Assembly (NCBI GenBank): GCA_023248495.1
Contig: JAHFEK010000005.1
Span: 6,560 to 70,559 of the forward strand
Origin: Nitrospinales bacterium
GTDB lineage: Bacteria; Nitrospinota_A; UBA7883; JACRGQ01
Direction of reading: 5' to 3'
Length of the DNA: 64,000 nucleotides
The position numbers were made by a program, and so were the translations under genes. The notes beneath the pieces were generated by a model that saw nothing but the letters and a program-made list of their open reading frames with translations, did not search any database and was not told where the DNA came from. Shown in pieces: positions 3,469-34,064 of the stretch; the stretch's first letter is position 1, and every line of letters starts with the position of its first letter.

Positions 3469-4174
3469 CATCAAAACGCTTATAAGCATCATCGATGCCG
3501 GGGAAGTAAAAGAGCTGCCGCGTATGCCGGATTTTCTCGATCTGAAAGACCCCCATAACGGATCGCTGGGTATGCCCGCGCTGGTCACCATAGAAGCGGT
3601 GCGCGCGGCGGCGGGAGACGCCGTCACCCTTTCCACCGCTATCGGCGATGCGGAATATGAACCTGAATTTTACGCCAACCGCGCGGTGGACGCGGCGCTG
3701 GCCGGGGCCGATATCGTGAAGGTCGGCCTTAAAAATGTCTCGGCGGAACAGGCGCCGTGGTTCCTTGCGGCCATCCGCCGCTCGCTGGACGCGCGCGCGC
3801 CCTACACCCGCATCGTCGCTGGCTTCTACGCCGACTTGATGGACGAAGCCTCGCTCAAGAAATTTCCCGCCGCCGCGCAAAACGCCGGCGTGTGGGGTTG
3901 CCTTATCGATACCTACGATAAAAGCGGCAATCGGCTGGGACACTATTGCGGACCGGAAACGCTGGCCGGATTCACCGCCGACTGCCGCGCGCGGGGCCTG
4001 AAAAGCGCGTTGGCCGGCGGCCTGGTGGAAGGCGACCTGGTCTGGCTGGACGAAGCGGATCCGGACATCGTCGGCTTCCGCTCCGCCGTGGCCCGGGGGG
4101 CGCGGGGCGCATCCGGTATCGACCCGAAAAAAGTTACCGACATCTTTTTCGCCGTCGATCAGCTTAACCGCTGA
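3428..4174 (+). CDS. MfnB-like / DUF556 (COG1891) class I aldolase-fold protein (4-HFC-P synthase homologue)
   Basis: Conserved blocks match archaeal MfnB: [19 protein letters not shown] (Schiff-base Lys context), [21 protein letters not shown] start overlaps the fabI 3' end by about 40 nt. Confidence 0.6.
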
Positions 4175-4303
4175 TTACTGATACATCTAACCAAATATTC
4201 AACCCTACTGAGCAAGGTTTTTTTTTCCGACTAGGGAAGGTGCAGCGATTTCCTCGTTAAAATAAGAATCCCGTCAAACCGATTTGCAGAGATTTAGAGC
4301 CAG

Positions 4304-5050
4304 CTACTCAAGAAGATTTTTTTCGCGGGTTGATTCGTAGAGGGAGGGAATATTTTTAGAGTGGATACGGAACTGGCTCCGCTTTTTGGCCTTCGGTTTT
4401 GTGGAGATATTTTCCAACTTGATGCCCGGATCATAGTAAACGCTGCCATTTGCGATGGCCTTAAGTAGGCGAAGAAAGTCGGTGCCCTTGCATAGCCGGA
4501 CAACATTTCCATAGCTGTATTTCAGTTCCGGTTTGTTCTCTTTCATTGAGGGAATATAAACGGCTTGAGCATGCTTCTTATTCCAGTGGGTTATTAATCC
4601 GCTGAAATCCCATAATGCCGCTACCTTGTCTTTAGAGGTTAGCAGCGCAATTCCACCAGAGGCATCTTTGATTTTTCCTTTCTCCGCATCATATCCCGAC
4701 AGGGTAAGCATGAGGCCGGTACTTTTCTGCCGCTCTCCAAATTTATGGATACCGCCAAAGTTCAACCGGTCAGGTTTGCCGTTTTTATCCGGGTACCCAT
4801 ATTTCCTGATGAACTCGACAACCCCTATTTCTTTATAAACGCCACCTCTTGGTTCTGGCGTCATGAGGGTAATCACACCTGATTTGAATTTATCAAAGGC
4901 GAAAACAGCATGTTGCTTAACTTCCCATCCAAGGTAATCCGGATCAGAATAGCCATTTGCTGTAATACCCAGTTCGGCCTCAAGGGTATAACCCCCACAG
5001 TTGGTTGTGTTGCAGGAGCCAAGCTTTCCACTTTTAGGCAGTTTTTGGAT
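4304..5050 (-). pseudogene. N-terminally truncated MutH/Sau3AI/BcnI-like PD-(D/E)XK restriction endonuclease fragment
   Basis: My translation of the open frame upstream of the called ORF gives ...GYSDPDYLGWEVKQHAV..., a PD-x(n)-E-x-K motif. It ends at an in-frame TAA (5051-5053) just after the HNH gene stop. The only usable start (GTG 4876) lies downstream of the catalytic motif. AT-rich. Confidence 0.55.
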
Positions 5051-5066
5051 TTAATCCAACCTTCCA

Positions 5067-5843
5067 TTATGGTCGAAAAATTGTCTCACGATGGTACCTT
5101 ATCGCAACTTTATCCGGTGAAAACTTCTTCGGCAAATTTACCATTATTCCCTCTATTTCTATTAATCCAATTCGATGGAGGGGTTGCGGTAATGCGGTTT
5201 TTAATTGGCTTGAAACCAAAATTTTAAAGGAATTATCGATAGCAATGTAACCTCGATCAAATGCACGGTCATGTAGTGCACAAAGAGAAATTCCATTTGT
5301 TGGGTCTGCCCTTCGATCGACCTTTTGACTCCAAGGGATAATATGACTTGCTATCAATAGCTCTCTGATTGGAAGCTGACAGAGAGCGCACTGTGAGCCA
5401 TAAGAAGCGAGAACAGTTTCTCTAAAAAAACTTTGAACTAATCGAACCTTTACTGAACGAACTTCCTCCGTTCTTAATGACAAACTATCTAAATTTACGT
5501 CTGGTAGCGATTTCTGGTCTGATTCCTTTCCAGTTATTGCTAAAAAGGCTTTCTGGCTTTCAAATGCAAGCCTACTCCAATCGGAATTGAATTCATCCCA
5601 TATTTTAAGGTCTTCTTTGCTCGCGTTGGCAAGTCCTTTAATGTTTCGTGCTTTTTGGACAGGATCCAAACTGGCAAAATTTACCAACTTCATTGCAATT
5701 GAGCTGGGTGTTCGGCCAAGTTTTAAAGCCAAAAATTTAATATCCGGATTTGCTTTGTGAAGACGACCAAAAGGCGTTCGACAGTAAAGATTGAATGCCA
5801 CGATTAATTCATCGTGGCTCCATCTTATTCTTTCATTCGTCAT
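5067..5843 (-). CDS. HNH-family endonuclease with uncharacterised N-terminal domain (restriction-type nuclease)
   Basis: C-terminal CALCQL...ASHIIPWS...NGISLCALHDRAFDRGYI matches the HNH (Cys/His..N..H) motif. Intact 258-aa ORF in the AT-rich island. Confidence 0.65.
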   Translation of the reverse strand: MTNERIRWSHDELIVAFNLYCRTPFGRLHKANPDIKFLALKLGRTPSSIAMKLVNFASLDPVQKARNIKGLANASKEDLKIWDEFNSDWSRLAFESQKAFLAITGKESDQKSLPDVNLDSLSLRTEEVRSVKVRLVQSFFRETVLASYGSQCALCQLPIRELLIASHIIPWSQKVDRRADPTNGISLCALHDRAFDRGYIAIDNSFKILVSSQLKTALPQPLHRIGLIEIEGIMVNLPKKFSPDKVAIRYHRETIFRP

Positions 5844-5899
5844 TGGTTTTGAAAAACTCTCGAGATGATTTGATGACCAAAGTCCAACACTCCAAATAG

Positions 5900-6642
5900 C
5901 TATCGGAGAACTACTAATCCATCAGCTTCAACTTTTTTTGCCCATGAGTTATTCCTCATAAAAACGGTTCCATAAACCCTAAGTACCCCTGAAATATGGA
6001 CGTTAATTAATATGGCGGTACAAGAAATCCCAACATCCCCAGCAAGGTTTTCGTCCATTAGCAAAAAGGTTGTTTCCTCAGCACAGTCATAGTAAATATC
6101 ACTTGCATCTTCAATAGTTTTAAAATCTTTAATAAACCGTCTAAAAATCAATTTGCCCTTCCAAATATTTTTTATTGCGCTTTTTAGATTATCGAGAACG
6201 GCTGGCAGGGAAAACCGGCCAACAGCACATCATGGTCAGGAATAAGCTGAATAGGCACTTTTGTTATATCGCCCACAATGGGATGATCATCATTAAAGTT
6301 TGCCCGGTAAGTTTCATTTGCCCGCTCATCCCATTCGCTGGTAAAGAGGCAATCCCCGCCTTGGGACTCGAAACCCAACCGAAAACCACCTATCCCGGCA
6401 AAAAGGTCTATAAAGGTGAAATCTCCTTGCGGCTTAAAAGCGGATAAATTAAGCGGCAAAAGAAGCTGTTGAAGCAACCGCCGGGCATAAGGCGGGGGAA
6501 TACATTCCCCAATTTCCCACCGCTGGATGGTTCTTGCATCCACCCCAAAATAATTAGCGACCTCTTTCTGTGAATAGATGGCATTCACTTCCAAGAGAAG
6601 ATTACCAAAAGAAACTCTCTTATTCATCTTCATCGCCCCCAC
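5900..6642 (-). pseudogene. DNA (cytosine-5)-methyltransferase with N-terminal HTH (M.SsoII-like architecture), disrupted by stop and frameshift
   Basis: ORF 6184..6642 has an XRE-like HTH, then motif I FIDLFAGIGGFRLGFE and motif IV GFPCQPFS, and stops. The downstream frame (5900..6151, TTG start) continues with an ENV-like block (LLMDENLAG). My frame walking finds two stops and a +1 shift between the pieces. Confidence 0.65.
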
Positions 6643-6774
6643 AATCCAGGAATATATACGGACAATATGGCAGAAATAGCTCCCTTATTCAACGACCAAG
6701 ATGACTGACTTTCAATGGCCCTTTCAAAGATGGACTTATTCCTTTCAGCCATTTACATATTGCTTACCTACCGA

Positions 6775-8646
6775 TTACTTCGCCCAGCGGTTGGAGCGGA
6801 GGAGGCTGAAGGTGATCTGGTTCTCGGCCAATAATTCCTTTTCCAGTCCGTCGAAATAGCCTTGTGGGGCTGCCCCCTCAAAGTAGCCGGTTTCCAGCCG
6901 GTCGCTCAGTGAATGCGTCAAGTAGCCTTTGTCGGTGATAATGCCGACAACCTCCCCCTCGCTGCAGAAGGCGCGTTGCCGCGTTTTGCGGAAGAGCGAA
7001 TCTCCCATCGCCGAAAAAGAATCGTCGAAACCGAGCAGATCGATGATGGTCGGCAACATGTCGAGCTGGCTGCCGACGGTATCCACCGCCTTCGGCTCCT
7101 TGAAGATGCCCGGCGCGTAAATAACCAGCGGCGTGTGAAACTTTTCACGGTATCCCCCGCTCCCGTTGCCGTAGTGCACCTGCGCGTGATCGGCGGTAAA
7201 AATGAAAATGGTTTTGGCGAACCACGGCTCTTTCTCCGCCGCCTTCATAAATTCGCCGATACTCCAATCGGAGTAATACAGGGTGTTTAAAAAGCCGTCT
7301 TCGCTTGAGGTGTCGGCGGGTTTTATTTCCCACTGTTTGCCCAGCGGCGGATAAGGGGTGTGCGTGGTGCCGGTGAAGAGATACGCGATGAACGGCCTTT
7401 TCGCCTTGTCGATCCGCGCTTTTAAAAACAGCAGTGTTTCGTAATCCCAGCCGAATACGCTGGCGCTATAGTCGGGGTAGTTCAAGAGCCTGGGGTAATC
7501 CTCCATGCCGTAGTAATCGGCGAATCCGGTGGCGCCCGCTATGGCATTGACCATGAACGAACGGCGGCGGGATGCTTGCAGGAAAATGGTCTCATAACCG
7601 TGGCGGCCGGCGATGGCGCCGAGCTTGGAAATGTTGGAGACCTCCAGCCCAAAGCCGAGCGCCGGGATGCCGTTCACCGGGGCGACGCCGGTGATGGTTG
7701 CCTGTATGCCAGTGATGCTGCGTTGGCCGGCAGCGTAAAAATTGGCGAACTTCAACCCGCGCGCCGCAAGCCGATCGAAGTTGGGCGTGACCCCATAGCC
7801 GTTATGGCCGAAGGAATCGACATATTTCACCCCCCAGCTTTCCATCAGGATAAAGACGATGTTGTAACCGGTGGACGTGGCGGCGTAGTTTTTTTGCATC
7901 GGGTAATCGCCCTCGGGCATGTTGAGCGCCGCAGCCGCCACTTTCAGCGGCATGAGCCGCAGATTGGCGGAATCGGCGTGGAGGGCGGAATGGTAAGCGG
8001 TGAACGCGCCATTGAGCATGAGGTTTCCCATGGCCGTATTGCCGCGCGAAAAGGCATCGATGGTGCCAAACGGTTTATCGGTTACGCTGCCGCGGATGCC
8101 GAGGAACAGGAAAATGACCAACAACAAAAAATTGAGCGCCGCGCTTTTGGGTAGCGTTTCGGGCTGACGGATTATTTTTTTCCAGAGCGCCCCCAGCGCC
8201 GCCGCGAAAAAGATAAATAAAACCAACTGCGGCAGGTAGACGCCGAATGCCATGTCGAACAGGTAGTGGACGTCGTTGCCCAGCATCAGCAGTTCGGTGG
8301 CCGTGTGGCGATGCACCTCGCCGAAGAAAGCGGTATCCCCCGCCAGCAACAGCGCCCCGGCCAGCAGAATGGCATACGCCGTCCATCCCCACGCCGTTGT
8401 CCAACGTCCGCCACGAAAAAACGCGCCCGGCAGATTCATCATCACGAACGGAAGGGAAAGAAAAGTGAGGGAGATGGAAAGATCAAACCGGACGCCAGCG
8501 GCAAAGCCGAAAAGTGTTTGCGCCGCTGACAGCTCGGCAAAATAGGGGCGGTGGACCAGAAACAGCCCAAGCCGTGAAAGCGAAAATACCGCTAGCGCGG
8601 CTCCAATGAAAAGACCCGTTTTTTGCATCCGGCTCATGTCAGGCAC
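6775..8646 (-). CDS. LTA-synthase/phosphoglycerol-transferase family membrane sulfatase-like protein (LtaS/MdoB/OpgB-like)
   Basis: Five N-terminal TM helices plus a C-terminal alkaline-phosphatase/sulfatase fold (FILMESWG, TPNFDRL, GQRSITG). 623 aa. Confidence 0.75.
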   Translation of the reverse strand: MPDMSRMQKTGLFIGAALAVFSLSRLGLFLVHRPYFAELSAAQTLFGFAAGVRFDLSISLTFLSLPFVMMNLPGAFFRGGRWTTAWGWTAYAILLAGALLLAGDTAFFGEVHRHTATELLMLGNDVHYLFDMAFGVYLPQLVLFIFFAAALGALWKKIIRQPETLPKSAALNFLLLVIFLFLGIRGSVTDKPFGTIDAFSRGNTAMGNLMLNGAFTAYHSALHADSANLRLMPLKVAAAALNMPEGDYPMQKNYAATSTGYNIVFILMESWGVKYVDSFGHNGYGVTPNFDRLAARGLKFANFYAAGQRSITGIQATITGVAPVNGIPALGFGLEVSNISKLGAIAGRHGYETIFLQASRRRSFMVNAIAGATGFADYYGMEDYPRLLNYPDYSASVFGWDYETLLFLKARIDKAKRPFIAYLFTGTTHTPYPPLGKQWEIKPADTSSEDGFLNTLYYSDWSIGEFMKAAEKEPWFAKTIFIFTADHAQVHYGNGSGGYREKFHTPLVIYAPGIFKEPKAVDTVGSQLDMLPTIIDLLGFDDSFSAMGDSLFRKTRQRAFCSEGEVVGIITDKGYLTHSLSDRLETGYFEGAAPQGYFDGLEKELLAENQITFSLLRSNRWAK

Positions 8647-9544
8647 AGACCTTTATGCCGCCAGCGCGGGTGACGGTGAACGAGCGCACCGTGGCGAAGC
8701 GGGCCGAGTAGTCCTCGCCATCTACCTGCAACGGAACCGCATCGATAAAGGCAAGGGTGAGCGGCGGTTCATGTGTCGCCGCCAAAGGGGCGAGGGCGGG
8801 AATGAAGCGGCTGGCCGCCATTCGCAGGAATGCCCCGTTGCCGGGCAGCTTCATCAGCTCTATTGCGCCATCATCCGGCTTTCCCCCGGCGCCAAAGCGC
8901 GAGCCCCCTCCATACCACGCGAGGTTGCCGATAATCACCGAAAGCGGCGTACCGTCCGCCATCGGCGCGCGTTTGGCGTGGAATAATAAAGCCCACAGGC
9001 CGACCAGGCCGAACAGCATTTTCTTTGCGAAGGCAAAACCGAAAAATCCGGTTTGTTCCAAATATTTGAGGGCCGATTGATAGAGCGAGAGCACCCAGCC
9101 GTCAAAGCCGAAGCTGACGTAATTGGTAAACAACAGCTCGCCATTGAGCGCCCACACATCCACCATCCCGAATGATGGCGCGACGGCGATTTTTTGCAAG
9201 TGGGTAATCACGCTTTTCTGGCGCGGCCCCAATTGCCGCGCAAAATCGTTGCCGGTGCCAAGCGGGAAAACCGCCAGCGCCGTCTCCGGCGCGTGGCGCA
9301 CAATCAGGTCGGCCATCTGATGCACCGTGCCGTCGCCCCCGCAGACCAGCGCGATATCGCACCCCTTGAGCGCCTCTATAACGGCGGGGATGGCGGCGGG
9401 GGAAGCGGGTGTGGCGCATATCGCCGTTACGCGGTTTTTCAGCAACGGATCGCGCGCGCGCGCGTCCGTCAGCATCCGCTGTATACGCGACCCTTTGCCG
9501 TGGCCCGATTTGGGATTGATAAAAATGCCTATCCGATTTTCCAC
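8639..9544 (-). CDS. soluble diacylglycerol/lipid kinase, DAGK_cat family (DgkB/YegS-like)
   Basis: IFINPKSGHGKG...CGGDGT...GTGNDFAR motifs. 8-nt overlap with the downstream LtaS-like gene. Confidence 0.75.
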   Translation of the reverse strand: MENRIGIFINPKSGHGKGSRIQRMLTDARARDPLLKNRVTAICATPASPAAIPAVIEALKGCDIALVCGGDGTVHQMADLIVRHAPETALAVFPLGTGNDFARQLGPRQKSVITHLQKIAVAPSFGMVDVWALNGELLFTNYVSFGFDGWVLSLYQSALKYLEQTGFFGFAFAKKMLFGLVGLWALLFHAKRAPMADGTPLSVIIGNLAWYGGGSRFGAGGKPDDGAIELMKLPGNGAFLRMAASRFIPALAPLAATHEPPLTLAFIDAVPLQVDGEDYSARFATVRSFTVTRAGGIKVCA

Positions 9545-22645: not shown

Positions 22646-22721
22646 GGGCGAATAGCTCAGTTGGTAGAGCGCCAGCTTTACACGCTGGATGCCACAGGTT
22701 CGAGCCCTGTTTCGCCCACCA
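22646..22721 (+). tRNA. tRNA-Val (anticodon TAC), 76 nt
   Basis: GGGCGAATAGCTCAGTTGGTAGAGCG-CCAGC-TTTACAC-GCTGG-ATGCC-ACAGGTTCGAGCCCTGT-TTCGCCCACCA. Confidence 0.88.
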
Positions 22722-24112: not shown

Positions 24113-25009
24113 CTACTTCTTGAAGCCCACGGCGAAGAGATTGCCGGCGGGGAGAGGAATCGGGATATGGCCGATACCTGTTGCCTTCAACAACGCGATC
24201 AGTTGCGCCTTGGCGGGCAGCGGCAGCAGCTTTATCCAGTAGTGCGCCGGGTAGGTGTTGACCACCGCGCGCACGTCGATCTCTTTGAATCCCGCCCCTT
24301 CCAGCAAACGGGCGACGCCGCGCGGCGAAAAAAGCTGGAGGTGCTCGATATCGAAAATGGGGGATTTCATGCCCAGCAGTTTCGCGGAAAACGCGCGGTG
24401 GTTGTGGCTGGCGATGGCAAAGGCGCCGCCCGGCTTTAACAAGCGGAATGCCGCGTCGCAGACGGCGGCGGGATCCGTCAGGTGTTCCACCGTTTGAAAA
24501 CAGGTAACGAGCGAAAAACTTCCCGGTTGAAAGGCCGATTCATAAAAAATTCCTTTGTGGATGAGCGGGCGAATGTTCTCCTTCGCCGCTTGTATCGGCG
24601 CGTCCGATGGCTCCACCCCGGCCACCCCGGTAAAACCGTTTTCAAGGAGCCGTTCTAAAAACGCGCCATCGCCCGTGCCGATATCCAACGCGCCCGCCCG
24701 GTCCGGCAGCCGGCGCGCCGCGCGCAATACATGCGCGATGTACGTGTCCGCCGCATGCGCGGCCTCTTCGCCGCTGTCGAATGCGGCCGATTCGTAGGCG
24801 TCGGCAAGCGCGCCAGCCTCCGGGACGGGGGTGGCGTAGAGCAGGTCGCAGGCATCGCAGCGGACAAGCCGCAGATGCATCTGCTCGGGTGTTTTGCGCG
24901 AAGCGTAGGCGAAGGCATCAAGCTTGGCGGCGTCGTAATTCGCCTCGGCAAAAAGGTTTGCCGTGCAGTCGGCGCCGCATACGGGACAGTGCCTCTCGCG
25001 CATTTGCAC
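24113..25009 (-). CDS. class I SAM-dependent methyltransferase with N-terminal Cys4 zinc ribbon
   Basis: CPVCGADC...CDACDLLY, then the SAM motif LDIGTGDGAFLERL. Last gene of the minus-strand glycan cluster. Confidence 0.7.
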   Translation of the reverse strand: MQMRERHCPVCGADCTANLFAEANYDAAKLDAFAYASRKTPEQMHLRLVRCDACDLLYATPVPEAGALADAYESAAFDSGEEAAHAADTYIAHVLRAARRLPDRAGALDIGTGDGAFLERLLENGFTGVAGVEPSDAPIQAAKENIRPLIHKGIFYESAFQPGSFSLVTCFQTVEHLTDPAAVCDAAFRLLKPGGAFAIASHNHRAFSAKLLGMKSPIFDIEHLQLFSPRGVARLLEGAGFKEIDVRAVVNTYPAHYWIKLLPLPAKAQLIALLKATGIGHIPIPLPAGNLFAVGFKK

Positions 25010-25014
25010 AGATG

Positions 25015-26991
25015 CTACTCCCGGCCCCGGGCCTGCGTTTCAGAGGCTTGGCGCACCTCGCCGTTCATCACGATGTTCCGCCGGATGAAGCGGGGCCGCT
25101 GCTTTACCTCTTCGAATATTTTGGCGATGTATTCACCCAAAATACTGAGAGCGAGGAGGTTTATCGAACCAAAAAAAACCACCGTTAAAATCATGGTGGT
25201 GGCGCCCTTGGGGGCGATATCGGGAAAAATCAGTTTAAGCGCCACTTCCACAATAGCGAGCAGAACGGATACGCCGAAAAGCGCCCAGCCGAAAAAGCTT
25301 AGCATGTTCAACGGCGTGTTGCTGAAGGAGAGTATCCCTTTTTTGGCCCAATCGATATTCTTAAGCAGGCTGTTGGTGGAAATGCCGAACATCCTCTCCG
25401 GGCGGACGTATGGGATGCCGGTCTGGCGGAACCCGGCGTAGGCCCGTATGCCGCGCATGAAGGCGTCGCGTTCGGGAAAACGGACAAGCGCCTTGACCAC
25501 CTTTTTATCCAGCAGCGAAAAATCCCCCGCGTCGTGCGGGATGTTCAGGTACGAGAACCAATCGAACACACGATAGAAGAGCTTGTAGGCGAACTGCATG
25601 TAAAGCGGCGCTTCGCGCTTCACCCGCACGCCGTACACCACCTCATACCCCTCTTTCCACTTTCCCATGAACTGCTCGATGATTTCGGGCGGATCCTGCA
25701 GATCGCCGTCCATCAGCACACAGCCGTTTTTCGTGGCGATTTCCATGCCGCTGCGGAAGGCCGCCTGCGAACCGAAATTGCGGGAATGGGTGATGCCGAT
25801 GACGTGCCGGTCACGCGCGCTGATGGCGCGGATGACCTCTTCGCTGTTATCGGGGCTGTTATCGTTGACGAAGATAATTTCATAATCGACATTGAGGGAT
25901 GTGAACACCTTCACCAGCCGTTCGTACATAATGGGGATCGCCTGGCCGTCCTTGTAACAGGCGACGATGGCGGAAATACTGTAAACGGTATCCACTCCCT
26001 GCTGCTTGGACGAGCGGCGGTACTTTTCAGGATCTTTAAGCCCCTTGTACCATGCCACGGTTTTCAGCAGGCCGTCGCGCAGGTTGGTGCTGGCGGCCCA
26101 CCCGATCAGCCGTTTGGCCTTGGCCGGATCGGCGTACCATTCCTGAACGTCCCACGCGCGGTTTTGCATTTCAAATTTCGGCTTTTCGGCGATGCCAAAA
26201 AGGTCGTGCGCCTCCGCGGCCAAATCGGAGATTTTTGTCCTCACGCCGCCGCCGATGTTAAACGACTCGCCCCAATTTTCCTCCCGCAAATTAAGCGCCG
26301 CGCTGATGAACGCTTCGCAGGCATCGTCAACATATACAAAATCGCGCGATATCTCGGGGTTGACCAGCGGCGGATATTTTCCCGCCAGCCCTTGGGCGAT
26401 CAATGACGGGATGAGCCGCGCGGCGTCTTCGTAAGGGCCGTAGATGGAATAGAGCCGCAAATTGGCGCAGGGGAAACGGAGTTTTTTGCCGTAGTAGTGC
26501 AACATTCCCGCCACCGCCATCTTGCTTACGGCATAGTGGCTGTTCGGCGCCAACTGCGCGTCTTCGGCCGGGCCGGAGGCGTTATCACCGTATTCTGACG
26601 AACTTCCCGCGTGTATGTAGCGCACCGCGCCGTGTTTCCGCAGCTCTTCCAGCAGCTTTACGGTGTAATTGACGTTGGTGCGGTAAATGAGGTCGAAATC
26701 GGTTTCGAATGAATAGGCGCCGTACGCCACGCAATCGAATACGGTGCGGGGGCGCACGGTCTCGACGAGTGTTTTTATATTGGTATCGACCAGCAGATCA
26801 GTGACGAGCACATTCTGCTCCGGCACCCCCTCCAACCGCCACGCCCACTGTTGTGTTTTGGTGCCGTGCACGTCGGCGCGAACCTCCAGCAGTATTCGAA
26901 AAAGATTCGCCCCCACGAAACCGCTGGCCCCCAGAACGAGTACCGGTCCCTGCAACCGTTCAATTTTGGCCTTCAGCTCCGGATTCATCAT
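25015..26991 (-). CDS. fusion protein: N-terminal NAD-dependent SDR epimerase/dehydratase plus C-terminal GT2 polyprenyl-phosphate glycosyltransferase (DPM synthase/ArnC/GtrB-like) with C-terminal TM hairpins
   Basis: N-terminal GASGFVGANL Rossmann and YAVSK catalytic dyad. C-terminal GT2 IIFVNDNSPDNS...LMDGDLQDPPE with DxD, then two C-terminal TM helices. 658 aa. Confidence 0.75.
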   Translation of the reverse strand: MMNPELKAKIERLQGPVLVLGASGFVGANLFRILLEVRADVHGTKTQQWAWRLEGVPEQNVLVTDLLVDTNIKTLVETVRPRTVFDCVAYGAYSFETDFDLIYRTNVNYTVKLLEELRKHGAVRYIHAGSSSEYGDNASGPAEDAQLAPNSHYAVSKMAVAGMLHYYGKKLRFPCANLRLYSIYGPYEDAARLIPSLIAQGLAGKYPPLVNPEISRDFVYVDDACEAFISAALNLREENWGESFNIGGGVRTKISDLAAEAHDLFGIAEKPKFEMQNRAWDVQEWYADPAKAKRLIGWAASTNLRDGLLKTVAWYKGLKDPEKYRRSSKQQGVDTVYSISAIVACYKDGQAIPIMYERLVKVFTSLNVDYEIIFVNDNSPDNSEEVIRAISARDRHVIGITHSRNFGSQAAFRSGMEIATKNGCVLMDGDLQDPPEIIEQFMGKWKEGYEVVYGVRVKREAPLYMQFAYKLFYRVFDWFSYLNIPHDAGDFSLLDKKVVKALVRFPERDAFMRGIRAYAGFRQTGIPYVRPERMFGISTNSLLKNIDWAKKGILSFSNTPLNMLSFFGWALFGVSVLLAIVEVALKLIFPDIAPKGATTMILTVVFFGSINLLALSILGEYIAKIFEEVKQRPRFIRRNIVMNGEVRQASETQARGRE

Positions 26992-27898
26992 GCTTGCATT
27001 ATGACGCCGAGAACGGCATCCGCGTCAATCCCGCATTCCTTGCGGTGGAATTGTTGCGAGCCGAGCCGGCCTGAAAGATACCCTTTCGCGTGGAAGTGGC
27101 CGAACCGGGGGGGAATGCCCCCCGCCAACGCCAATACGCGGCTCAATGCTTCTCCCAGCCCGCCGTGGGCAACATGTTCTTCCACCACGTGGAGCGCGCC
27201 GCTTTTTTTCACATCGGCCAGAAATGCGGCAGGCGGGGAATTGTGCTCAAGCGGCAGTTCCGTGACCGCCCAGAGCGCGGGGCGCATTTTTCCATCCATG
27301 GCGGCCAGCTTCCCGATAAAACCGCCGGCGATGGGACCGATAGCGGCGATCACCGGGCCGCTGCCCGAAACTATTTTCCTCCATCCGGCGTAGGGGGGCA
27401 AATCGAATCCCGCCGGTTTTTCGCAACGGCCAAGCCGGAGGTAGCCGGGCAACGGCGAATCGGCCATTTTGTCCACTATCGGGGCGACGTCCGGCCCGAA
27501 CGCCGGGACGTAAGCCCGCATGTGCGGCAGGCAAAGCATCGCGCCGTAATCCTCCAGCGCGTGGTGTGTCGCCCCCATCGAGCCGTAGGCGTAGCCCCCG
27601 CCGTTACCGACGATTTTCACGTTGAGCCGGTGGGAGCAGACATCGTTCCGAATCTGTTCAAACGGGCGGGCATAGGCGAATGGCGCGATGCTGTAGATCC
27701 ATGCGGGCAGCCCTTCGCTGGCCATCCCCGCCGCGACCGATACCATGTTCTGTTCCGCCACACCCGCGTTGATGAAAAGTTCCCCCATCGCATCGCGCAG
27801 CGGTTCCAGGGCCATGAAGCCGAGATCGCCGGTGAGAAAGGCGAACCGGCGGCGATGCGAGAGGGCAACCAGCGCCTGACAAACGGCGTTTCTCATGC
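26988..27898 (-). CDS. transketolase C-terminal (pyrimidine-binding) subunit of a split transketolase
   Basis: FLTGDLGFMALEPLRDAMGELFINAGVAEQNMVSVAAGMA. Start assigned to the internal Met overlapping the upstream stop (ATGA). Confidence 0.8.
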
Positions 27899-28681
27899 GC
27901 GCTCCACCTCGTCCACCGCCAAACGGTACTGCTCTTTCGTCAGCGGAAGGTAGTGCCATTCCATTTTGTCCTCCATAAAGGAGACGCCGTGCCCCTTCAC
28001 GGTCCGCATGATGATCACTTTCGGCAGGCCGCTTTGTTGCGTCACCGCACGGTGCAACTCACGCGGATCGTGCCCGTCAATGCTCAACACCTCGAAGCCG
28101 AAAGCGCGGAACTTATCGCCGAACGGCTCCATGTTCGCCACTTCGCCCGTACGGCCGAACCCCTGCAAATCGTTGCGGTCTATCAAGAGGGTGACGCGGT
28201 GCAGGTTGTGATGCGCGATGAAAAGAGCCGCCTCCCAGTTGGATCCTTCGTTCCACTCGCCGTCGGACATGAGGCAGTAAACCGGCGCGTTATTCTTTTG
28301 CAGATGGCGCGCCATGCCCACCCCCGCCGCGAGGCCGAGGCCATGCCCCAAGCTGCCGGTGGAAAAGCGGATGCCGGGGTGCCAGCCCCCGACGGGATGG
28401 CCGGGGAGATTCGTGTTGTCCTTATGGAATTGAACGAGGTCGTCATCGGAAAGCTGACCGTCCGCCCAGAGCGTGACATAAAGCGCGCCGGCCGAGTGCC
28501 CCTTGGAAAGAATGAAGAGGTCTTCCTTTTCCATCACCTGCATGTGGAGGAAAAGTATCGCGTCAAGCGACGAAAGGTTCCCGCCGATGTGGCCAATGCC
28601 GCTTTCAAGATGCATTTTTAAAAGGCGCAGCTTAGCTTTCTTCAACACTTCATTGAATGCGGAAAAATCAGGGGTCTTCAC
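27893..28681 (-). CDS. transketolase N-terminal (TPP-binding) subunit of a split transketolase
   Basis: GHIGGNLSSLDAILFLH...LSKGHSAGALY...GSLGHGLGLAAGVGMA are TPP-binding motifs. Confidence 0.8.
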   Translation of the reverse strand: MKTPDFSAFNEVLKKAKLRLLKMHLESGIGHIGGNLSSLDAILFLHMQVMEKEDLFILSKGHSAGALYVTLWADGQLSDDDLVQFHKDNTNLPGHPVGGWHPGIRFSTGSLGHGLGLAAGVGMARHLQKNNAPVYCLMSDGEWNEGSNWEAALFIAHHNLHRVTLLIDRNDLQGFGRTGEVANMEPFGDKFRAFGFEVLSIDGHDPRELHRAVTQQSGLPKVIIMRTVKGHGVSFMEDKMEWHYLPLTKEQYRLAVDEVERA

Positions 28682-28800
28682 AGTGCCGTATTATACCCTC
28701 CGGGGCTGGCCGTGGCTACTTGTTGGAGCGATGCATGGCGGGCTTGGCCAGCCGGAAACCGCCGTGAAACGGGGCGGGAAAAGGCCAAAAGGGATCCTGC

Positions 28801-30285
28801 TTAAAATACCATCGTCACTAAAATCCCAAGCGTGTAAAAATCCTTGTCTTCCGCAATGATGGTGTATTGGTTGGGTAAATCGTTAGTATCATAATTCGTG
28901 GTTTTGTCGTATCGCATATAGAGCGAAACGTCATAAAGGCCAAAACGGCTTTGCGGCTCCACCACGATAAAATCGCGCACCATTTGCAAAGGCGACTCGT
29001 CAAGGTGCGGTGACTTGGGATCTTCGTAACGGCCGATTTGGTATTTGAGCCGCGTCTGGCCGCTGAAGCGATGCATGTGGCTGTAGACCAACGTGCGGCT
29101 GTTGGTTCCCGTGATCCCCCCCATGGAAACACCTTGGTACGCATACCCTTCGTAGGGATATTGACTATGCAGATAAAATCCGTAGCATATCCGCTGATAT
29201 TCCAAGCGGAAAAAGTCATCCTCGAACGCCAACGTCATCCCCGACATGTTTGAAGGCTGGCCGAAGTAGAAAAAAGATTCCCTTTGCACCCCGCTGGGGG
29301 TATCTGTGAAAAACGTGGCCACGTCCCCCGCCGCCTCTTCATCATAAAGGGTAAACGACTTAACCGACGGGAAAAGCATATCGAGCGGAAGCCGGAGCGT
29401 CGCGTCAAATGAAAGAATTCCATCGTTGTTATATTTGCCCGACACATGTTCGCCGAATCCGCTTATCAATTGAAGATACTCGTTCGTTTGGTACTGGGGC
29501 CGGCCAGCGCCCCCATAATGGGTGATCTTTGTGCCGCCCAATTCCAGCCAGCTGGCCGGGGAATAGGTCATGCGCATGGCAAACACATTCGAATTCGACG
29601 GATCCTGCTGCTTGTTCCATAGCAGCCAGCCGTTCATTAATGTGATATCCCATTTCCCCAGAAAATCGAGCGGCTCTTCAGTGGCAAGCTTTATCAGCGG
29701 GTAGGGCTCGGCATTGGTGGAAAGAAGCAAACCGCCGTATTCACCGGATCCCAGGGCAACATTATCTTTTCCGGCCTCGATGGCCCATTTGCCCAAACGA
29801 TATTTTGCGTAGGCGCGGAATATTTGGCTCTGCTTGAGTTGCTCCGTCTCAATTTGTTTGAACTGGTAGTAAAAGGCGAAGCTGTCGCTGTAGGCGGCGT
29901 AGCCGTCCTCAAAAAGAAAAAGATTCGCCCCTTTGTAGTAGACAAGCCCGGACGAACCCGGAATGACCGCTTTTTCCTCATTGCCGGCAAAAAATTTGCC
30001 CGTGATGCTGGAAAGCGGCTTGAGGTTCCACACCCCATCATTACTGACAACGCAACCGGAATCGGCGCTATCAAGCCCGGACTTTTCCAGGCGGTAGCAA
30101 CTGGTGGGGGATACGCCCCAGCCAGAAGTCATCTTATCCGAGACAATGCCAAGAGAGTCGTAAAAGGCCGAATTTTCTGGGTTGATGTTCAAAATATCCG
30201 CCGCTCCGGCGGCGGCAGGGAACAAAAGCGTTGCCAGCGCCACATACAATGCACCCAACCGAGATATCATAGCTGTGAATTCCAT
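28801..30285 (-). CDS. secreted protein, probable outer-membrane beta-barrel (hypothetical)
   Basis: Signal peptide ending AAGAA|D. Alternating-hydrophobic strands. C-terminal ...LGILVTMVF with terminal Phe (OMP signature). No family recognised. Confidence 0.5.
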   Translation of the reverse strand: MEFTAMISRLGALYVALATLLFPAAAGAADILNINPENSAFYDSLGIVSDKMTSGWGVSPTSCYRLEKSGLDSADSGCVVSNDGVWNLKPLSSITGKFFAGNEEKAVIPGSSGLVYYKGANLFLFEDGYAAYSDSFAFYYQFKQIETEQLKQSQIFRAYAKYRLGKWAIEAGKDNVALGSGEYGGLLLSTNAEPYPLIKLATEEPLDFLGKWDITLMNGWLLWNKQQDPSNSNVFAMRMTYSPASWLELGGTKITHYGGAGRPQYQTNEYLQLISGFGEHVSGKYNNDGILSFDATLRLPLDMLFPSVKSFTLYDEEAAGDVATFFTDTPSGVQRESFFYFGQPSNMSGMTLAFEDDFFRLEYQRICYGFYLHSQYPYEGYAYQGVSMGGITGTNSRTLVYSHMHRFSGQTRLKYQIGRYEDPKSPHLDESPLQMVRDFIVVEPQSRFGLYDVSLYMRYDKTTNYDTNDLPNQYTIIAEDKDFYTLGILVTMVF

Positions 30286-30425
30286 GCGCCAAAAAGGCCG
30301 TCGTTTAACATTACTTTTCCGTTTGTTTCAAGATGAAACCGGGATATTCATCTTTCCTATTAACGGAGAACTTTACTCCCTTCACAATAGAGCAATCAAT
30401 ACCATATTGTTCTCGGCATAAACGG

Positions 30426-31655
30426 TTACCCTTCCTGGGAAAGTGAACCGATGGCGACGCCCCGGCGGCCTTCCCAAAAGAACCTGACCGCCTCTTTCCA
30501 CGCCCAGATGCAGAGCCAGACCGCGCCTATGGTTTTTACATGCCATTGGTTGGCGAACTGCCTCCCCGGCCGCGGCGTTAAATCCGAAAAAATTATGGAA
30601 ACAAGGAACCATCCTATCAACAGGAATGCCATCTGGGTTTTAAACCCCGCCTCGTCCCCTTCGCTCCGGGCGGAAAGGGCGGCATGGAGCATAAACGTGA
30701 ATATGGGAACCAGCATAACGTAGGTGGGGCTTTCCGCCCGCTTATTGAAAAGAATCATAAACGTTAAAGCCAGCGGCACAATCAGCCGGACGAATTGCCC
30801 CCTATCCTGGCGGAAAACCATGAACGCCGCGGCCGCGATGAGCGCCGCGTTCAAAAGCAGGAAACCGAAAAACGCTTGATTGCTTAAAATGATTCCGTAG
30901 TGTTGCAGCGTGGGATGCAGGCCCAAATACATGGTATGCACCCGTTCCATGGAATGCAGTTCTATAAGCGTTTGGAAGCATTCAATCAGCAGGGATGACG
31001 ACATGACCAATAGCGGCAACAGGGAAAGGCCCGCGAGGAAAAGAACGAATGACGCGATGAAAACCGCGTTGAACTCCAACATCAGCAGCAGCGCCATCGG
31101 AAGCGGTATGATTTTCAGCCCCACCCCCAAAGCCAAAATAAAACCGGAAACCGCATACCGGCCCCGGAAGTACATGGCCGTTCCCAACAGGATAAGGCCG
31201 GTGATAAGGCTGTTAATCTGCAAGTTGGTAAGACTGCCCATCATCTCGTTAGTCATCAGAAGCAGGGCGAAAAAATACCACCACCCGCGGAAAAGTTTCC
31301 GTTTCCCGTCTATTTCACGCCATACGGCATGAATGCCGGCCATAAGCACGAGCATGTTCAGCACGCACCATACATAGGATCCTGCCTGTGGCCCCAAGGC
31401 GAGCGTGGAAAACGGATAAAAAAACAGCGCGAAGAGCGGCGGCCACAAAAACCAAGTGCCGAAAGGAGGCTCCGCCGTCTTCCAGTTTTCCGGATAGGGG
31501 TTGCTATGGTTTTGAATGATGGAGATAACGCCGCCGTTGTATCCCAGATAGTTGTTGTGTATCCCCATCGCCGGCGAGATGGCCAATAACATGAAAAAAA
31601 GAACGAAGAGAACCGCCACTTTCCCTTCGAATTCTAGTTTTCGCCAGTAGTTCAT
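30426..31655 (-). CDS. DUF2029/GT87-like polytopic membrane glycosyltransferase (GT-C fold), paralogue A
   Basis: ~10 TM helices. First extracytoplasmic loop has ..NPYP...PP...F. Paralogous to the adjacent gene (shared blocks FVLFF, FFxPFSTxxLGP, YxWxxLN, KLxPLxMALLL). Confidence 0.6.
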   Translation of the reverse strand: MNYWRKLEFEGKVAVLFVLFFMLLAISPAMGIHNNYLGYNGGVISIIQNHSNPYPENWKTAEPPFGTWFLWPPLFALFFYPFSTLALGPQAGSYVWCVLNMLVLMAGIHAVWREIDGKRKLFRGWWYFFALLLMTNEMMGSLTNLQINSLITGLILLGTAMYFRGRYAVSGFILALGVGLKIIPLPMALLLMLEFNAVFIASFVLFLAGLSLLPLLVMSSSLLIECFQTLIELHSMERVHTMYLGLHPTLQHYGIILSNQAFFGFLLLNAALIAAAAFMVFRQDRGQFVRLIVPLALTFMILFNKRAESPTYVMLVPIFTFMLHAALSARSEGDEAGFKTQMAFLLIGWFLVSIIFSDLTPRPGRQFANQWHVKTIGAVWLCIWAWKEAVRFFWEGRRGVAIGSLSQEG

Positions 31656-31788
31656 TTAAGTGTGGGTGACGATGATTTAATATGAGTTGAAATGGAAGTG
31701 GAAGTTGGCGATCCTTGCCGCTCCAAACGCTGGTTATTTAATGACATGGGGGAATCATACCTTAATAATCCCCGTGGTGCGCGGCAAA

Positions 31789-33027
31789 TTATCGAGCGGG
31801 GCCGGCCACTGGAATTACCGTTCCTTCCGCCTGCATTTTGTCGCTGAAATGCATCACGATCCGCGCCCATGCCCACAGATACAGGAGAATTGCCCCCAGC
31901 GTTTTAAAATGCCAGACCTCCGCCGTCACGCGAAAGATAGGGGACGAAAAAGCGCTGTAACCCCACCAGATGAACATCCATCCGGCGACGATGAATAGGG
32001 CGTTGGCGCGGAATCCGTTCTCATCCCCATCTTCGCGGGAACGCAACGCGGCGTGCAACATGAAAACAAACACCGGCGCGAGGGTTATGAAACTCTGACT
32101 CTCCGCCCGCCGGTTGAACAGGACGGCGAAACCCAACAGTGTCGGCACAATGAGCCGCAGGTACTCGCCGCGATCCTTCTTTAGAAGATGGAACGATGCC
32201 AGCGCCAACGCCCCGGCATTGGCCAAGGCGAAAAAAACAAATTCGGCGGGATGAACATGGAAACCATAATGCAGCAGGGTCGGCTCCAAACCGAGAAAGG
32301 CGGCGCGCAACGGCTCGTTTGCTAAAATATCAAACCAGCTTGCCAACATCGAGCTGTAGGCGGCGCTTCCCATGATGGGTATAGGAAGGAGGAAAAGAAG
32401 GGCGGCAATAACGGCGAAGCCAAAGACAAAAACCAAACCAAGATCAAGGCCGAGGAGCAACGCCATCGCCAATGGAAATAACTTGAAATTTGCCCCCATC
32501 GCCAGCAGCAGGGCGGCCCCTGCCTTGCGCCCCCGCATGTAAAGACCCGCTCCCAACATCATCATGCCGGTAATAAGCCCATTATTATGCGCATTCATCA
32601 CCGCGCCCGGCATTTCACTGGCCAGCAGAAATAGCGCGAAAAGGAACCACTTTCCCCGCAACAGCTTCTGTTCCCTGTCGACAAGACTGAATATAGACCA
32701 AACCCCCGCCATAAACATCGCGAAATTCAGCATCACCCAGGCATAAGCGCCGATATCCGGCCCTAGCCCGTGGTGGGTGGAAAAAGGGGAAAAAAAGTAC
32801 GCAAAGGTTGGACTGCACAGGAATTGCGCCAAAGGGGGAGGTTCGGAATCTTGCCCATTAATTGAAGTGTAGGGATTCATCCCTATTATGACGGCGCGCG
32901 TGCCAACGTCATATACCTGATACACCTTGCGCCGATCGCCCACCAGAAAAAACGCGGCCACGGCGAAGAAAAGGACAAAGATCGCCGCCGCCTTCCGCTC
33001 AAAAGAAAGCCTTCGTATGTAGTTCAT
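31789..33027 (-). CDS. DUF2029/GT87-like polytopic membrane glycosyltransferase (GT-C fold), paralogue B
   Basis: YDVGTRAVIIGMNPYT...EPPPLAQFL loop motif. Same architecture as paralogue A. Confidence 0.6.
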   Translation of the reverse strand: MNYIRRLSFERKAAAIFVLFFAVAAFFLVGDRRKVYQVYDVGTRAVIIGMNPYTSINGQDSEPPPLAQFLCSPTFAYFFSPFSTHHGLGPDIGAYAWVMLNFAMFMAGVWSIFSLVDREQKLLRGKWFLFALFLLASEMPGAVMNAHNNGLITGMMMLGAGLYMRGRKAGAALLLAMGANFKLFPLAMALLLGLDLGLVFVFGFAVIAALLFLLPIPIMGSAAYSSMLASWFDILANEPLRAAFLGLEPTLLHYGFHVHPAEFVFFALANAGALALASFHLLKKDRGEYLRLIVPTLLGFAVLFNRRAESQSFITLAPVFVFMLHAALRSREDGDENGFRANALFIVAGWMFIWWGYSAFSSPIFRVTAEVWHFKTLGAILLYLWAWARIVMHFSDKMQAEGTVIPVAGPAR

Positions 33028-33240
33028 ATGGTAACGACAATTATATATGACACTGTGGGGAGCTTTGACGGTTTGGGGAAAATAATGCCTTCTCTGACGC
33101 TGTCATTGTTATGGCCTGAGGTTGCGAGACGCTTATAGATCACCCGATACCCGCTTCTCACCAGAACCTTACAACCAAATAAAACAATGTTCTTGGCCGG
33201 GCGGCCAAGTGTGGACGGCCCTAATGACGGCTGTTATGGC

Positions 33241-33258
33241 ACAGCTCTTGAATTAACT
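33241..33258 (+). promoter_or_regulatory. candidate sigma-54 (-24/-12) promoter upstream of flgF
   Basis: TGGCAC-agctc-TTGAA compared with consensus TGGCAC-N5-TTGCW, about 35 nt upstream of the flgF start. The -12 GC is degenerate (GA). Confidence 0.3.
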
Positions 33259-33293: not shown

Positions 33294-34064
33294 TTGAATA
33301 AGGGAATCTACATCGCCACCAGCGGCAGCCTTGCCCAAGAGCGGGCAATGGACATTATCGCCAACAACATGGCGAACATGAACACGTCCGGCTACAAGGC
33401 TGATCGTATGCTTTTCCAAACCTACCTCTCGAAAGCCCATGCGCCTGACTCGGCCGCGCCGACTTCGAATGAAATCAAGACGGGCGCCACACAAAATAAA
33501 ACGGAAGATACCGCGTATATGTTCAGCTCGCAAAGCTACACCAATTATGAACAGGGCGCGCTGCAAAAAACCGGAAACACATTCGATATCGCGCTTGACG
33601 GCGATGGATTTTTGGCCGTTCAGACGCCGCTGGGGGAGCGTTATACCCGGGGCGGCGCTTTTAAAATCGACGCGGGAGGCGACCTTGTCACGGCGGACGG
33701 CTTTAAAGTATCAAACCAAAACGGCAACGCCATCCATGTGGGAAACGACGAATTTTCCGTACGGGAAGACGGCCTTATCACCGTCTCCGGCGGCGGCACC
33801 GAGCAATTTAAAATTGTGAATTTCGCCGACCGCACCCAGCTCAAGAAATCGGGACAAGGGCTTTTCGTGGCGGAGGCGGGAATGGAAACGGCGGCGCCCA
33901 CGGCTGCCGTGAGGCAAGGGTATCTGGAAGCTTCCAACATTAATCCGGTGGCGGAGATGACCCGGATGATCACCGCGCTGCGAACCTATGAAGCGTTTCA
34001 AAAAGCGGTTCACTCTAATGACGACATGACAACGCGGCTTATCGCCGACGTGGCCAGACCATAA
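33294..34064 (+). CDS. flgF: flagellar basal-body rod protein FlgF
   Basis: IYIATSGSLAQERAMDIIANNMANMNTSGYKA N-terminal rod motif. ~256 aa. RBS AGGAGGA. Confidence 0.85.
   Translation: MNKGIYIATSGSLAQERAMDIIANNMANMNTSGYKADRMLFQTYLSKAHAPDSAAPTSNEIKTGATQNKTEDTAYMFSSQSYTNYEQGALQKTGNTFDIALDGDGFLAVQTPLGERYTRGGAFKIDAGGDLVTADGFKVSNQNGNAIHVGNDEFSVREDGLITVSGGGTEQFKIVNFADRTQLKKSGQGLFVAEAGMETAAPTAAVRQGYLEASNINPVAEMTRMITALRTYEAFQKAVHSNDDMTTRLIADVARP

Follow-up and report, generated by a model that had tools for sequence, protein, structure and literature searches.

A seven-gene glycan cluster beside flgF in a Nitrospinales bacterium and the widespread four-gene cassette at its core

Gene content of the cluster

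Seven open reading frames (ORFs) occupy positions 24113-33027 of a 64,000-nucleotide stretch of DNA from a Nitrospinales bacterium (contig JAHFEK010000005.1; this whole stretch is called the window and all positions in it are counted from its first letter). All seven lie on the minus strand in one orientation. An original prediction, made from the sequence letters, had placed them at the same positions and read them as a glycan cluster encoding a candidate periplasmic glycosylation system; the identities assigned there hold, and Pfam and NCBIfam agree on every assignment. The core of the cluster was found to be a unit of four translationally coupled genes, TktN-TktC-SDR::GT2-MT, which encode the two halves of a split transketolase (TK)-like enzyme, a fusion of a short-chain dehydrogenase/reductase (SDR) to a GT2 glycosyltransferase, and a methyltransferase (MT). 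The cluster most likely attaches an unusual, chemically modified sugar from a lipid carrier to a molecule of the cell envelope. The seven genes, with the two domains of the fusion listed separately, are as follows.

31789-33027, minus strand: GT87a, a GT-C membrane glycosyltransferase of 412 amino acids with 8-9 transmembrane (TM) segments (Pfam PF09594, E 5.5e-11, 43.1 bits)
30426-31655, minus strand: GT87b, a GT-C paralogue of 409 amino acids (Pfam PF09594, E 4.2e-19, 69.7 bits)
28801-30285, minus strand: Wzi-like outer-membrane protein of 494 amino acids (Pfam PF14052 Caps_assemb_Wzi, E 5.4e-29)
27893-28681, minus strand: TktN, the thiamine diphosphate (ThDP)-binding half of the split transketolase-like enzyme (PF00456 Transketolase_N, E 3.4e-26)
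26988-27896 if started at M22 (the mechanical ORF reaches 27959), minus strand: TktC, the Pyr/C-terminal half (PF02779 Transket_pyr, E 1.2e-18)
25015-26991, minus strand: SDR::GT2 fusion of 658 amino acids (Epimerase and Glycos_transf_2)
26002-26991, minus strand: SDR domain of the fusion, extended and NAD-dependent, residues about 1-330 (PF01370, E 8.6e-44)
25015-25989, minus strand: GT2 domain of the fusion, GtrB/ArnC-type with two C-terminal TM helices (matches to GtrB 5ekp, ArnC and PgfS)
24113-25009, minus strand: MT, a class I S-adenosylmethionine-dependent methyltransferase with an N-terminal four-Cys zinc ribbon (PF13489, E 1.5e-23)

Both proteins of GT87, the former DUF2029, score above the curated PF09594 cut-off of 25 bits. 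Short or overlapping junctions had been claimed for the whole cluster, and this is true of the last four genes but not of the three junctions upstream of them. The tight joins are confined to TktN-TktC-fusion-MT: the TktN stop and the TktC start share an ATGA overlap when TktC begins at M22 (27896), TktC and the fusion overlap by 4 nucleotides (nt), and a gap of 5 nt separates the fusion from MT. M22 is the start in 54 of the 58 TktC homologues, the mechanical ORF start being 21 codons further upstream. The junctions GT87a/GT87b, GT87b/Wzi and Wzi/TktN measure 133, 140 and 119 bp respectively.

Distribution and neighbours of the four-gene cassette

Relatives of the fusion were sought in one genome per species, which gave 264 confirmed matches, and the best 80 were examined. 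Two of these loci (L001 and L002) belong to Nitrospinales-like metagenome-assembled genomes in which the fusion is 86-89% identical to that of the window, and the remaining 78 come from other phyla with a fusion identity of 60-65%. The order of the four genes is kept across at least ten phyla at 50-65% identity, the carriers being found in Acidobacteriota, Planctomycetota, Cyanobacteria (Nostoc, Pseudanabaena), Desulfobacterota (Geobacter, Pelobacter), Armatimonadota, Myxococcota, FCPU426, Firestonebacteria and several Proteobacteria as well as in another Nitrospinae.

Both TK halves were located near the fusion in 67 of the 71 loci with enough flanking sequence, with TktC ending directly before the fusion in 50 loci. 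The zinc-ribbon MT accompanies the cassette in 54 of 71 loci, the full set of four genes was found in 43 of 62, and many loci contain an added second methyltransferase of about 275 amino acids. Since both halves accompany the fusion in nearly every locus, the split transketolase is its most faithful partner and not a stray gene of central metabolism. It had been listed in the original prediction without a role; its presence is borne out, but its standing as the most conserved partner of the fusion, with a remodelled acceptor site (described below), had been overlooked.

The fusion family is large, comprising more than 5000 clusters at 90% identity in a large protein collection (E<=1e-50), and the names carried by its members are all generic. 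No description of a TktN-TktC-SDR::GT2-MT cassette was found in a full-text search of the literature. Two apparent cases were set aside: a literature match in Anabaena is an ordinary full-length transketolase, and the wps-2 cluster of Actinoplanes contains a split TK and a methyltransferase without a GtrB fusion. A TktC::SDR::GT2 triple fusion of the Rosetta-stone kind was also rejected: the ORFs that suggested it, in L004, L026, L030 and others, owe their length to spurious extension upstream and have no in-frame TktC match.

The genes flanking the cassette change from phylum to phylum but stay of one kind. Large multi-TM proteins, defined as having at least 350 amino acids and at least seven TM segments, make up 45% of the genes directly adjoining the cassette against 3-13% of those at five to nine genes away, and such a protein adjoins the cassette in 46 of 77 loci. 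The representatives that could be typed belong to PMT_2 (ArnT/PMT-like GT-C, one of them with a PA14 domain), YfhO and GT87, and some have no Pfam match. The genetically linked users of the polyprenyl-phosphate sugar synthase are GT-C enzymes, and this neighbour pattern is the pattern expected of a lipid-linked donor module that serves interchangeable GT-C transferases. GtrA flippases, small GT2 enzymes, an acyltransferase and WecB/WecC were also seen in some cassette loci, with GtrA falling in gene cluster c31, whose members lie in three related loci. WecB/WecC (UDP-ManNAcA synthesis) and a GDP-mannose dehydratase were considered as hints to the substrate and discarded; they adjoin the cassette in a minority of loci and seem to belong to larger polysaccharide loci.

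A different arrangement was observed outside the Nitrospinales in L044, L027, L077, L015, L008 and L031, where the cassette is followed by repeated pairs of a PMT_2-type GT-C of about 850 amino acids and an NHL-repeat beta-propeller of about 330 amino acids. These pairs may represent a recurring transferase/partner module.

The two GT87 proteins of the window are 42% identical to each other, and their family is narrow here, with eight proteins given by a word-indexed search. Both paralogues were found joined directly to the cassette, independently of one another. In L001 and L002 the arrangement is flgF <> GT87a-TktN-TktC-fusion(-MT) with no Wzi, and in L081 and L086 it is GT87b that directly precedes TktN-TktC-fusion. 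The L081 unit adjoins rpsT (ribosomal protein S20), with no flg genes, and the Wzi-like gene of the same genome is located elsewhere (L088). The full order of the window, GT87a-GT87b-Wzi-TktN-TktC-fusion-MT-MerR-SPOR-ComEC, is repeated in L087 at 72-89% identity, GT87b and Wzi overlapping there by 4 nt. A GT87-Wzi pair was found in L089 and three GT87 paralogues beside flgF in L085, and L083 has flgF divergent from a GT87a-like gene, a different methyltransferase and MerR, with TK and fusion absent on its 10.3-kb contig. Wzi is an optional, lineage-specific addition, and GT87-Wzi pairs recur in two other contigs (L087, L089). The third GT87 paralogue, of about 414-417 amino acids, lies within 185-3984 in L085 and within 1-2518 in L089.

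Because the same seven-gene order is seen in L087 and the four-gene core is seen across phyla, the arrangement is not a product of chance. The genes are linked in relatives, so that of the refuting outcomes named with the original prediction, none that computation could check came about. The idea that all seven form one coherent pathway survives in part: the four-gene core is universal, whereas GT87 and Wzi are lineage-specific additions, so that the seven are not one ancestral unit. The cluster of the window is a lineage-specific elaboration of the widespread cassette.

Sequence features of the proteins and flanking DNA

The C-terminal half of the fusion had been called a polyprenyl-phosphate glycosyltransferase, and its matches agree with this. 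It matches GtrB 5ekp (2e-60) and ArnC (4e-38) in the PDB, and in NCBIfam it matches PgfS best (3e-65; 220 bits, under the 500-bit equivalog cut-off) and ArnC at 2e-43. The motif DGDLQDPPE, which is the GtrB/ArnC/DPMS signature and contains the DxD, does not vary among 69 homologues, and the two TM helices at the C-terminus form a hairpin. This domain is accordingly predicted to be a polyprenyl-phosphate sugar synthase of the GtrB/ArnC type. Enzymes of this type load a nucleotide-activated sugar onto undecaprenyl phosphate (Und-P) at the cytoplasmic face.

The SDR half keeps GxxGxxG, its YxxxK is invariant, and its nearest solved structures are 4-epimerases acting on UDP-glucuronic acid (UDP-GlcA) and UDP-hexoses (6zl6, 1e-24). 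In the invariant GSSSEYG, S-S-S aligns to the T-D-E of RmlB (dTDP-glucose dehydratase), leaving the domain without the dehydratase acid/base pair, and the T-S-E of the UXS/ArnA decarboxylases is also missing. Given the absence of dehydratase and decarboxylase residues and the nearness to 4-epimerases, the SDR half is expected to perform C4 redox chemistry.

TktN matches the split transketolase 6yak at 5e-52 and TktC matches 6yaj at 4e-31. The ThDP-binding motif, the activating Glu and the donor-site histidines of transketolase (EC 2.2.1.1) are all kept: H31, H62, H95, D140, E142 and H243 of TktN are invariant in 61 cassette homologues, and the cofactor-activating Glu of TktC, E69, is invariant as well. 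Cassette-type TktC can be described by the motif G-x-G-G-G-x-x-Y-G-x-M-G-x-x-H-H. The canonical contacts to acceptor and phosphate (H461, D469 and R520 in E. coli; H416, D424 and R474 in human) were compared over 58 TktC homologues. The acceptor His is replaced by Gly in all 58, the stereo-determining acceptor Asp is lost in all 58 and is Met in 53 of them, and the phosphate-binding Arg is kept in 32. An exhaustive search (E<=1e-30) placed 430 clusters at 50% identity in this subfamily, and a simple pattern test on the top 150 cluster representatives found the strict variant motif in 72 and the canonical pattern in none. The remodelling of the acceptor site is systematic and argues against a housekeeping role on sugar phosphates.

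The zinc ribbon of MT (CxxC...CxxC; C8, C11, C51 and C54) is conserved in 43-44 of 51 homologues. The PDB matches of this protein are weak, the two noted being UbiG (8e-9) and the zinc-domain sugar C-methyltransferase TcaB9 (4e-6). A PADLOC scan for defence systems gave a generic methyltransferase match and nothing else.

The GT-C nature of the GT87 proteins was examined on an AlphaFold2 (AF2) model of GT87b with a predicted local distance difference test (pLDDT) score of 78.6. Its top PDB fold match is PimE (9dm7_A; E 1.9e-4, TM-scores 0.57 and 0.63, 19% identity), followed by PIG-U, GPI mannosyltransferase I, ArnT, ALG9/12 and Emb, and a sequence search of the PDB with GT87b gave no match. 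On this model GT87b has a predicted GT-C fold and a transporter is excluded, in keeping with the original prediction. Both GT87 proteins are of small size and lack a soluble periplasmic domain. In L084, the interval 871-2863 includes a GT87 homologue (43-45% identical) whose gene overlaps that of a prepilin peptidase (PilD) at the latter's 3' end and lies beside Lnt (apolipoprotein N-acyltransferase); for another organism, this context may point to an acceptor related to pilin or lipoproteins.

The outer-membrane beta-barrel proposed earlier can be made more specific as a Wzi-like protein. It scores 101.8 bits to PF14052 against a cut-off of 30.1 and has a signal peptide, a C-terminal Phe and a beta-rich prediction, and its direct sequence match to Wzi 2ynk is marginal (E 0.0038). 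The AF2 model, at a pLDDT of 43.8, is too poor for a fold search or for a count of the 18 barrel strands. No Wza, Wzb or Wzc domains were found among the window ORFs scanned, and an exact-sequence look-up showed that the product is not on record with that start codon.

Divergent from GT87a lie flgF (starting at 33294), flgG, flgA, flgH and flgI, behind the 266-bp spacer that had been reported, and the other side of the cluster is bordered by genes for MerR, a SPOR protein and ComEC. The following elements were noted in the spacer and upstream of TktN.

33237-33252, plus strand: sigma-54-like element TGGCAC-N5-TTGA, TGGCACAGCTCTTGAA, about 40 nt upstream of flgF; unchanged in four of five genomes, with one substitution in L083
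33028-33100, minus strand: block of some 70 conserved nt directly adjoining the start codon of GT87a, its TATAAT lying only about 14 nt from the ATG; nearly invariant in five genomes
28690-28718, minus strand: sigma-70-like site TAGCCA-17-TATAAT, matching 10 of 12 consensus positions, just upstream of TktN

The sigma-54-type element suggests RpoN-dependent transcription of the rod/ring operon and would be part of the flagellar operon rather than of the glycan cluster. The block at 33028-33100, which has no Rfam match and no covarying structure, may be a promoter or operator of GT87a or may mark a near-leaderless transcript. The sigma-70-like site may act as an internal promoter for the four-gene core. 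Orthologues of GT87a are divergent from flgF in L001, L002, L083 and L085, and between flgF and MerR the glycan genes form a variable islet set in a block of conserved synteny.

A candidate donor pathway and its alternatives

The best explanation for the whole is a Gtr/Arn-like periplasmic glycosylation system built on a widespread, uncharacterised donor-synthesis cassette, and we regard it as reasonably probable. The general architecture, in which a GtrB-type enzyme makes a lipid-linked donor for GT-C users, can be put forward with considerable confidence, and branching chemistry on the lipid-linked sugar is a tentative part of the picture. In the proposed pathway, the SDR domain would oxidise C4 of a UDP-sugar, and the keto intermediate would be modified in the cytoplasm before or during its hand-over to the GT2 domain, the TK-like enzyme adding a two-carbon ketol branch and the methyltransferase a methyl group, in an order and at positions that are left free. 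The fused GT2 domain would capture the modified sugar on Und-P and a flippase encoded elsewhere would move the lipid-linked sugar across the membrane. GT87a and GT87b would then transfer it in the periplasm to membrane- or lipid-anchored acceptors, most likely lipopolysaccharide (LPS) or another glycolipid or glycan rather than protein; a lipid-anchored acceptor is favoured because the GT87 proteins are small, PimE-like and devoid of a soluble periplasmic domain. Where it is present, the Wzi-like barrel would hold or anchor the resulting glycan at the surface. The flip-then-transfer scheme of the original prediction is retained for its GtrB-type synthase and its GT-C enzymes; the cluster itself encodes no flippase. 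For the cassette at large, we advance as a speculative proposal that it makes an undescribed sugar, C-branched by the TK-derived enzyme, methylated and carried on Und-P, which would be a common periplasmic donor for many GT-C families in at least ten phyla.

The monosaccharides known to be used for periplasmic glycosylation from polyprenyl phosphate include glucose, 4-amino-4-deoxy-arabinose (Ara4N), galacturonic acid (GalA), mannose, arabinose, ribose and N-acetylgalactosamine (GalNAc), and a donor modified by a transketolase-type enzyme would bring new chemistry to this list. The cluster resembles the Gtr system (GtrA flippase, GtrB Und-P-glucose synthase and a serotype-specific GT-C) in having a GtrB-type GT2 with a TM hairpin and an interchangeable adjoining GT-C. 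The concept of three-component periplasmic glycosylation has also been described for pentofuranose systems (Kelly et al. 2024, PMC11127046). Unlike in either case, the synthase here shares one polypeptide with an SDR and its gene is coupled to those of a ThDP enzyme and a methyltransferase, there is no clustered flippase, and the GT-C belongs to GT87. Because of this fusion and coupling, the donor is probably not a common sugar. PimE and the other mycobacterial GT87 polyprenyl-phosphate-mannose transferases are similar in their GT87 profile, in being the best fold match, and in being small GT-C enzymes without a soluble domain, which fits a lipid-anchored acceptor. They differ in showing 19% identity, in that the loop Asp is mostly Asn here, and in the Nitrospinales-like, Gram-negative host. 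The donor of the GT87 proteins is probably not mannose, as the linked synthase suggests a different one.

In the Arn pathway (ArnA/B/C/D/E/F/T), which places L-Ara4N on lipid A, an SDR makes a C4-keto sugar nucleotide that is modified, an ArnC-type GT2 loads it onto Und-P and a GT-C transfers it. The cluster is unlike this pathway in having no decarboxylase signature, aminotransferase, formyltransferase, deformylase or ArnE/F, with the TK-like enzyme and MT in place of the transaminase. The Pgf system of Streptococcus mutans consists of the GT2 PgfS, the epimerase PgfE and the GT-C enzymes PgfM1 and PgfM2, and mycobacterial GalE1/PpgS/Rv3779 is similar. Here too an epimerase-type SDR and a polyprenyl-phosphate GT2 are combined with two GT-C paralogues, but the SDR and GT2 form one polypeptide, a TK and a methyltransferase are added, and the host is Gram-negative. 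Wzi of E. coli K30 is an outer-membrane lectin that anchors group 1 capsule. The protein of the window is comparable in its PF14052 match, signal peptide, beta-rich prediction and C-terminal Phe and differs in having no wza-wzb-wzc nearby and a marginal 2ynk match.

Transketolases have been proposed to attach a hydroxyacetyl group to a keto sugar as miharamycin and amipurimycin are made, and branching of LPS sugars by YerE-type enzymes is also on record (ThDP-enzyme review, PMC12247030). As in those systems, a ThDP enzyme of the TK superfamily with its donor-site histidines kept stands beside an enzyme capable of making a keto sugar. The known examples of ThDP sugar branching, however, concern nucleoside antibiotics or CDP-sugars of O-antigens, and none of them is tied to a polyprenyl-phosphate synthase and GT-C; the chemistry here is predicted from sequence. 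If true, ThDP-dependent carbon-carbon chemistry would here be seen for the first time to supply a lipid-linked glycosyl donor. Judging from the abundance of the cassette (more than 5000 clusters) and its high conservation (60-65% between phyla), its product is probably a common but unnoticed part of the envelopes of environmental bacteria. The analysis also defines a large TK-like subfamily whose acceptor site is altered and which could be of interest for biocatalysis, and as culturable carriers of the cassette exist, for example relatives of Nostoc or Geobacter, the question is experimentally tractable.

Several observations weigh against the proposed pathway. The SDR active site looks like that of a plain 4-epimerase, from which a keto intermediate need not be released. 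MT resembles sugar C-methyltransferases weakly (4e-6) and no more closely than it resembles UbiG. A flippase (GtrA, ArnE/F, MATE or Wzx) is absent among the seven genes and the window ORFs scanned, and GtrA is found in few related loci. Where many GT-C enzymes hold the catalytic Asp in their first periplasmic loop, this GT87 group mostly has Asn. The three gaps of 119-140 bp, together with the promoter-like site before TktN, permit more than one transcript. Lastly, sequence gives no means of inferring the substrate sugar, the regiochemistry and order of the steps, or which molecule is the TK donor and which the acceptor.

The main rival to the proposed pathway is the simple coupling of an epimerase to the synthase, as in PgfE/PgfS or GalE1/PpgS: the SDR would do no more than 4-epimerise a common UDP-sugar and the GT2 would load it onto Und-P, with TK and MT acting elsewhere, for example in precursor supply or in late methylation of the glycan. 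We consider it unlikely, though it is the strongest of the alternatives. The nearness of the SDR to UDP-GlcA/UDP-hexose 4-epimerases, its S-S-S / YxxxK site without dehydratase residues, the top NCBIfam match of the GT2 half to PgfS and the lack of MT in about one quarter of cassette loci all speak for it. Such a system would nevertheless leave aside the translationally coupled TK halves that stay with the fusion in 67 of 71 loci and the systematic remodelling of the TK-like acceptor site, and the cassette holds no kinase or nucleotidyltransferase that would activate a free sugar made by the TK. An Arn-type modification of lipid A conferring resistance to cationic peptides is improbable. The GT2 half does match ArnC (2e-43; 4e-38), ArnT is among the fold matches of GT87b, and a small GT-C fits a lipid acceptor, but the ArnA-type T-S-E site, ArnB, ArnD and ArnE/F are missing and the GT-C belongs to GT87, not GT83. 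Lipid A or the LPS core is still a possible acceptor, with a chemistry other than that of Ara4N. The least credible alternative takes the split transketolase as an ordinary pentose-phosphate enzyme and the seven genes as an accidental juxtaposition. The TK halves score best against genuine split transketolases and the first four genes are separated by gaps of 119-140 bp, as this would have it. It is already contradicted by synteny, since the four-gene order extends across at least ten phyla with start/stop overlaps in the core and the seven-gene order is repeated in L087, and the canonical His, Asp and Arg contacts are lost.

A flagellar association, which the original prediction had offered as a guess, fared poorly and is very improbable. 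On this account the cluster would modify a periplasmic flagellar part or a glycan of rod/ring assembly and would be co-regulated with flgFGAHI through the 266-bp region. The divergent flgF <> GT87a arrangement is indeed kept in the window, L001, L002, L083 and L085, with a FlgF identity of 69-82%. What is syntenic, however, is the block ComEC-SPOR-MerR...flgFGAHI, and the islet between varies, with one to three GT87 genes and with or without Wzi and the cassette on the available contig fragments; L083 keeps flgF <> GT87a without TK and fusion on its contig. The adjacency to flgF within the lineage is explained by this synteny of the block. The unit of GT87b and cassette adjoins rpsT in L081, 78 of the 80 cassette loci have no flg neighbour (two touch flg genes), and the conserved blocks of the spacer are separate, sigma-54-like for flgF as against TATAAT for GT87a. 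Known flagellar glycosylation genes are absent from the cluster: no domains of nonulosonic-acid synthesis (Pse/Leg) or of a Maf-type transferase were found in it, and its neighbours are rod/ring genes, not flagellin. The adjacency is positional, a matter of synteny only, and nothing beyond position supports a flagellar function.

Three further features were observed elsewhere in the window. A region at 4000-6650 with a GC content of 0.44, compared to about 0.58, contains a fragment of an MvaI/BcnI-family endonuclease, an HNH endonuclease and a truncated C5 DNA methylase with a helix-turn-helix, and is probably a decayed or horizontally acquired restriction-modification island. At 6775-9544 on the minus strand, a membrane-anchored sulfatase-family protein of 623 amino acids with an LtaS/EptA/OpgB-like architecture is followed by a diacylglycerol-kinase-family protein, and the two may act as a separate pair that modifies envelope lipids or glycans. 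A tRNA-Val(TAC) gene lies at 22646-22721 on the plus strand, between the ComEC and SPOR-domain genes.

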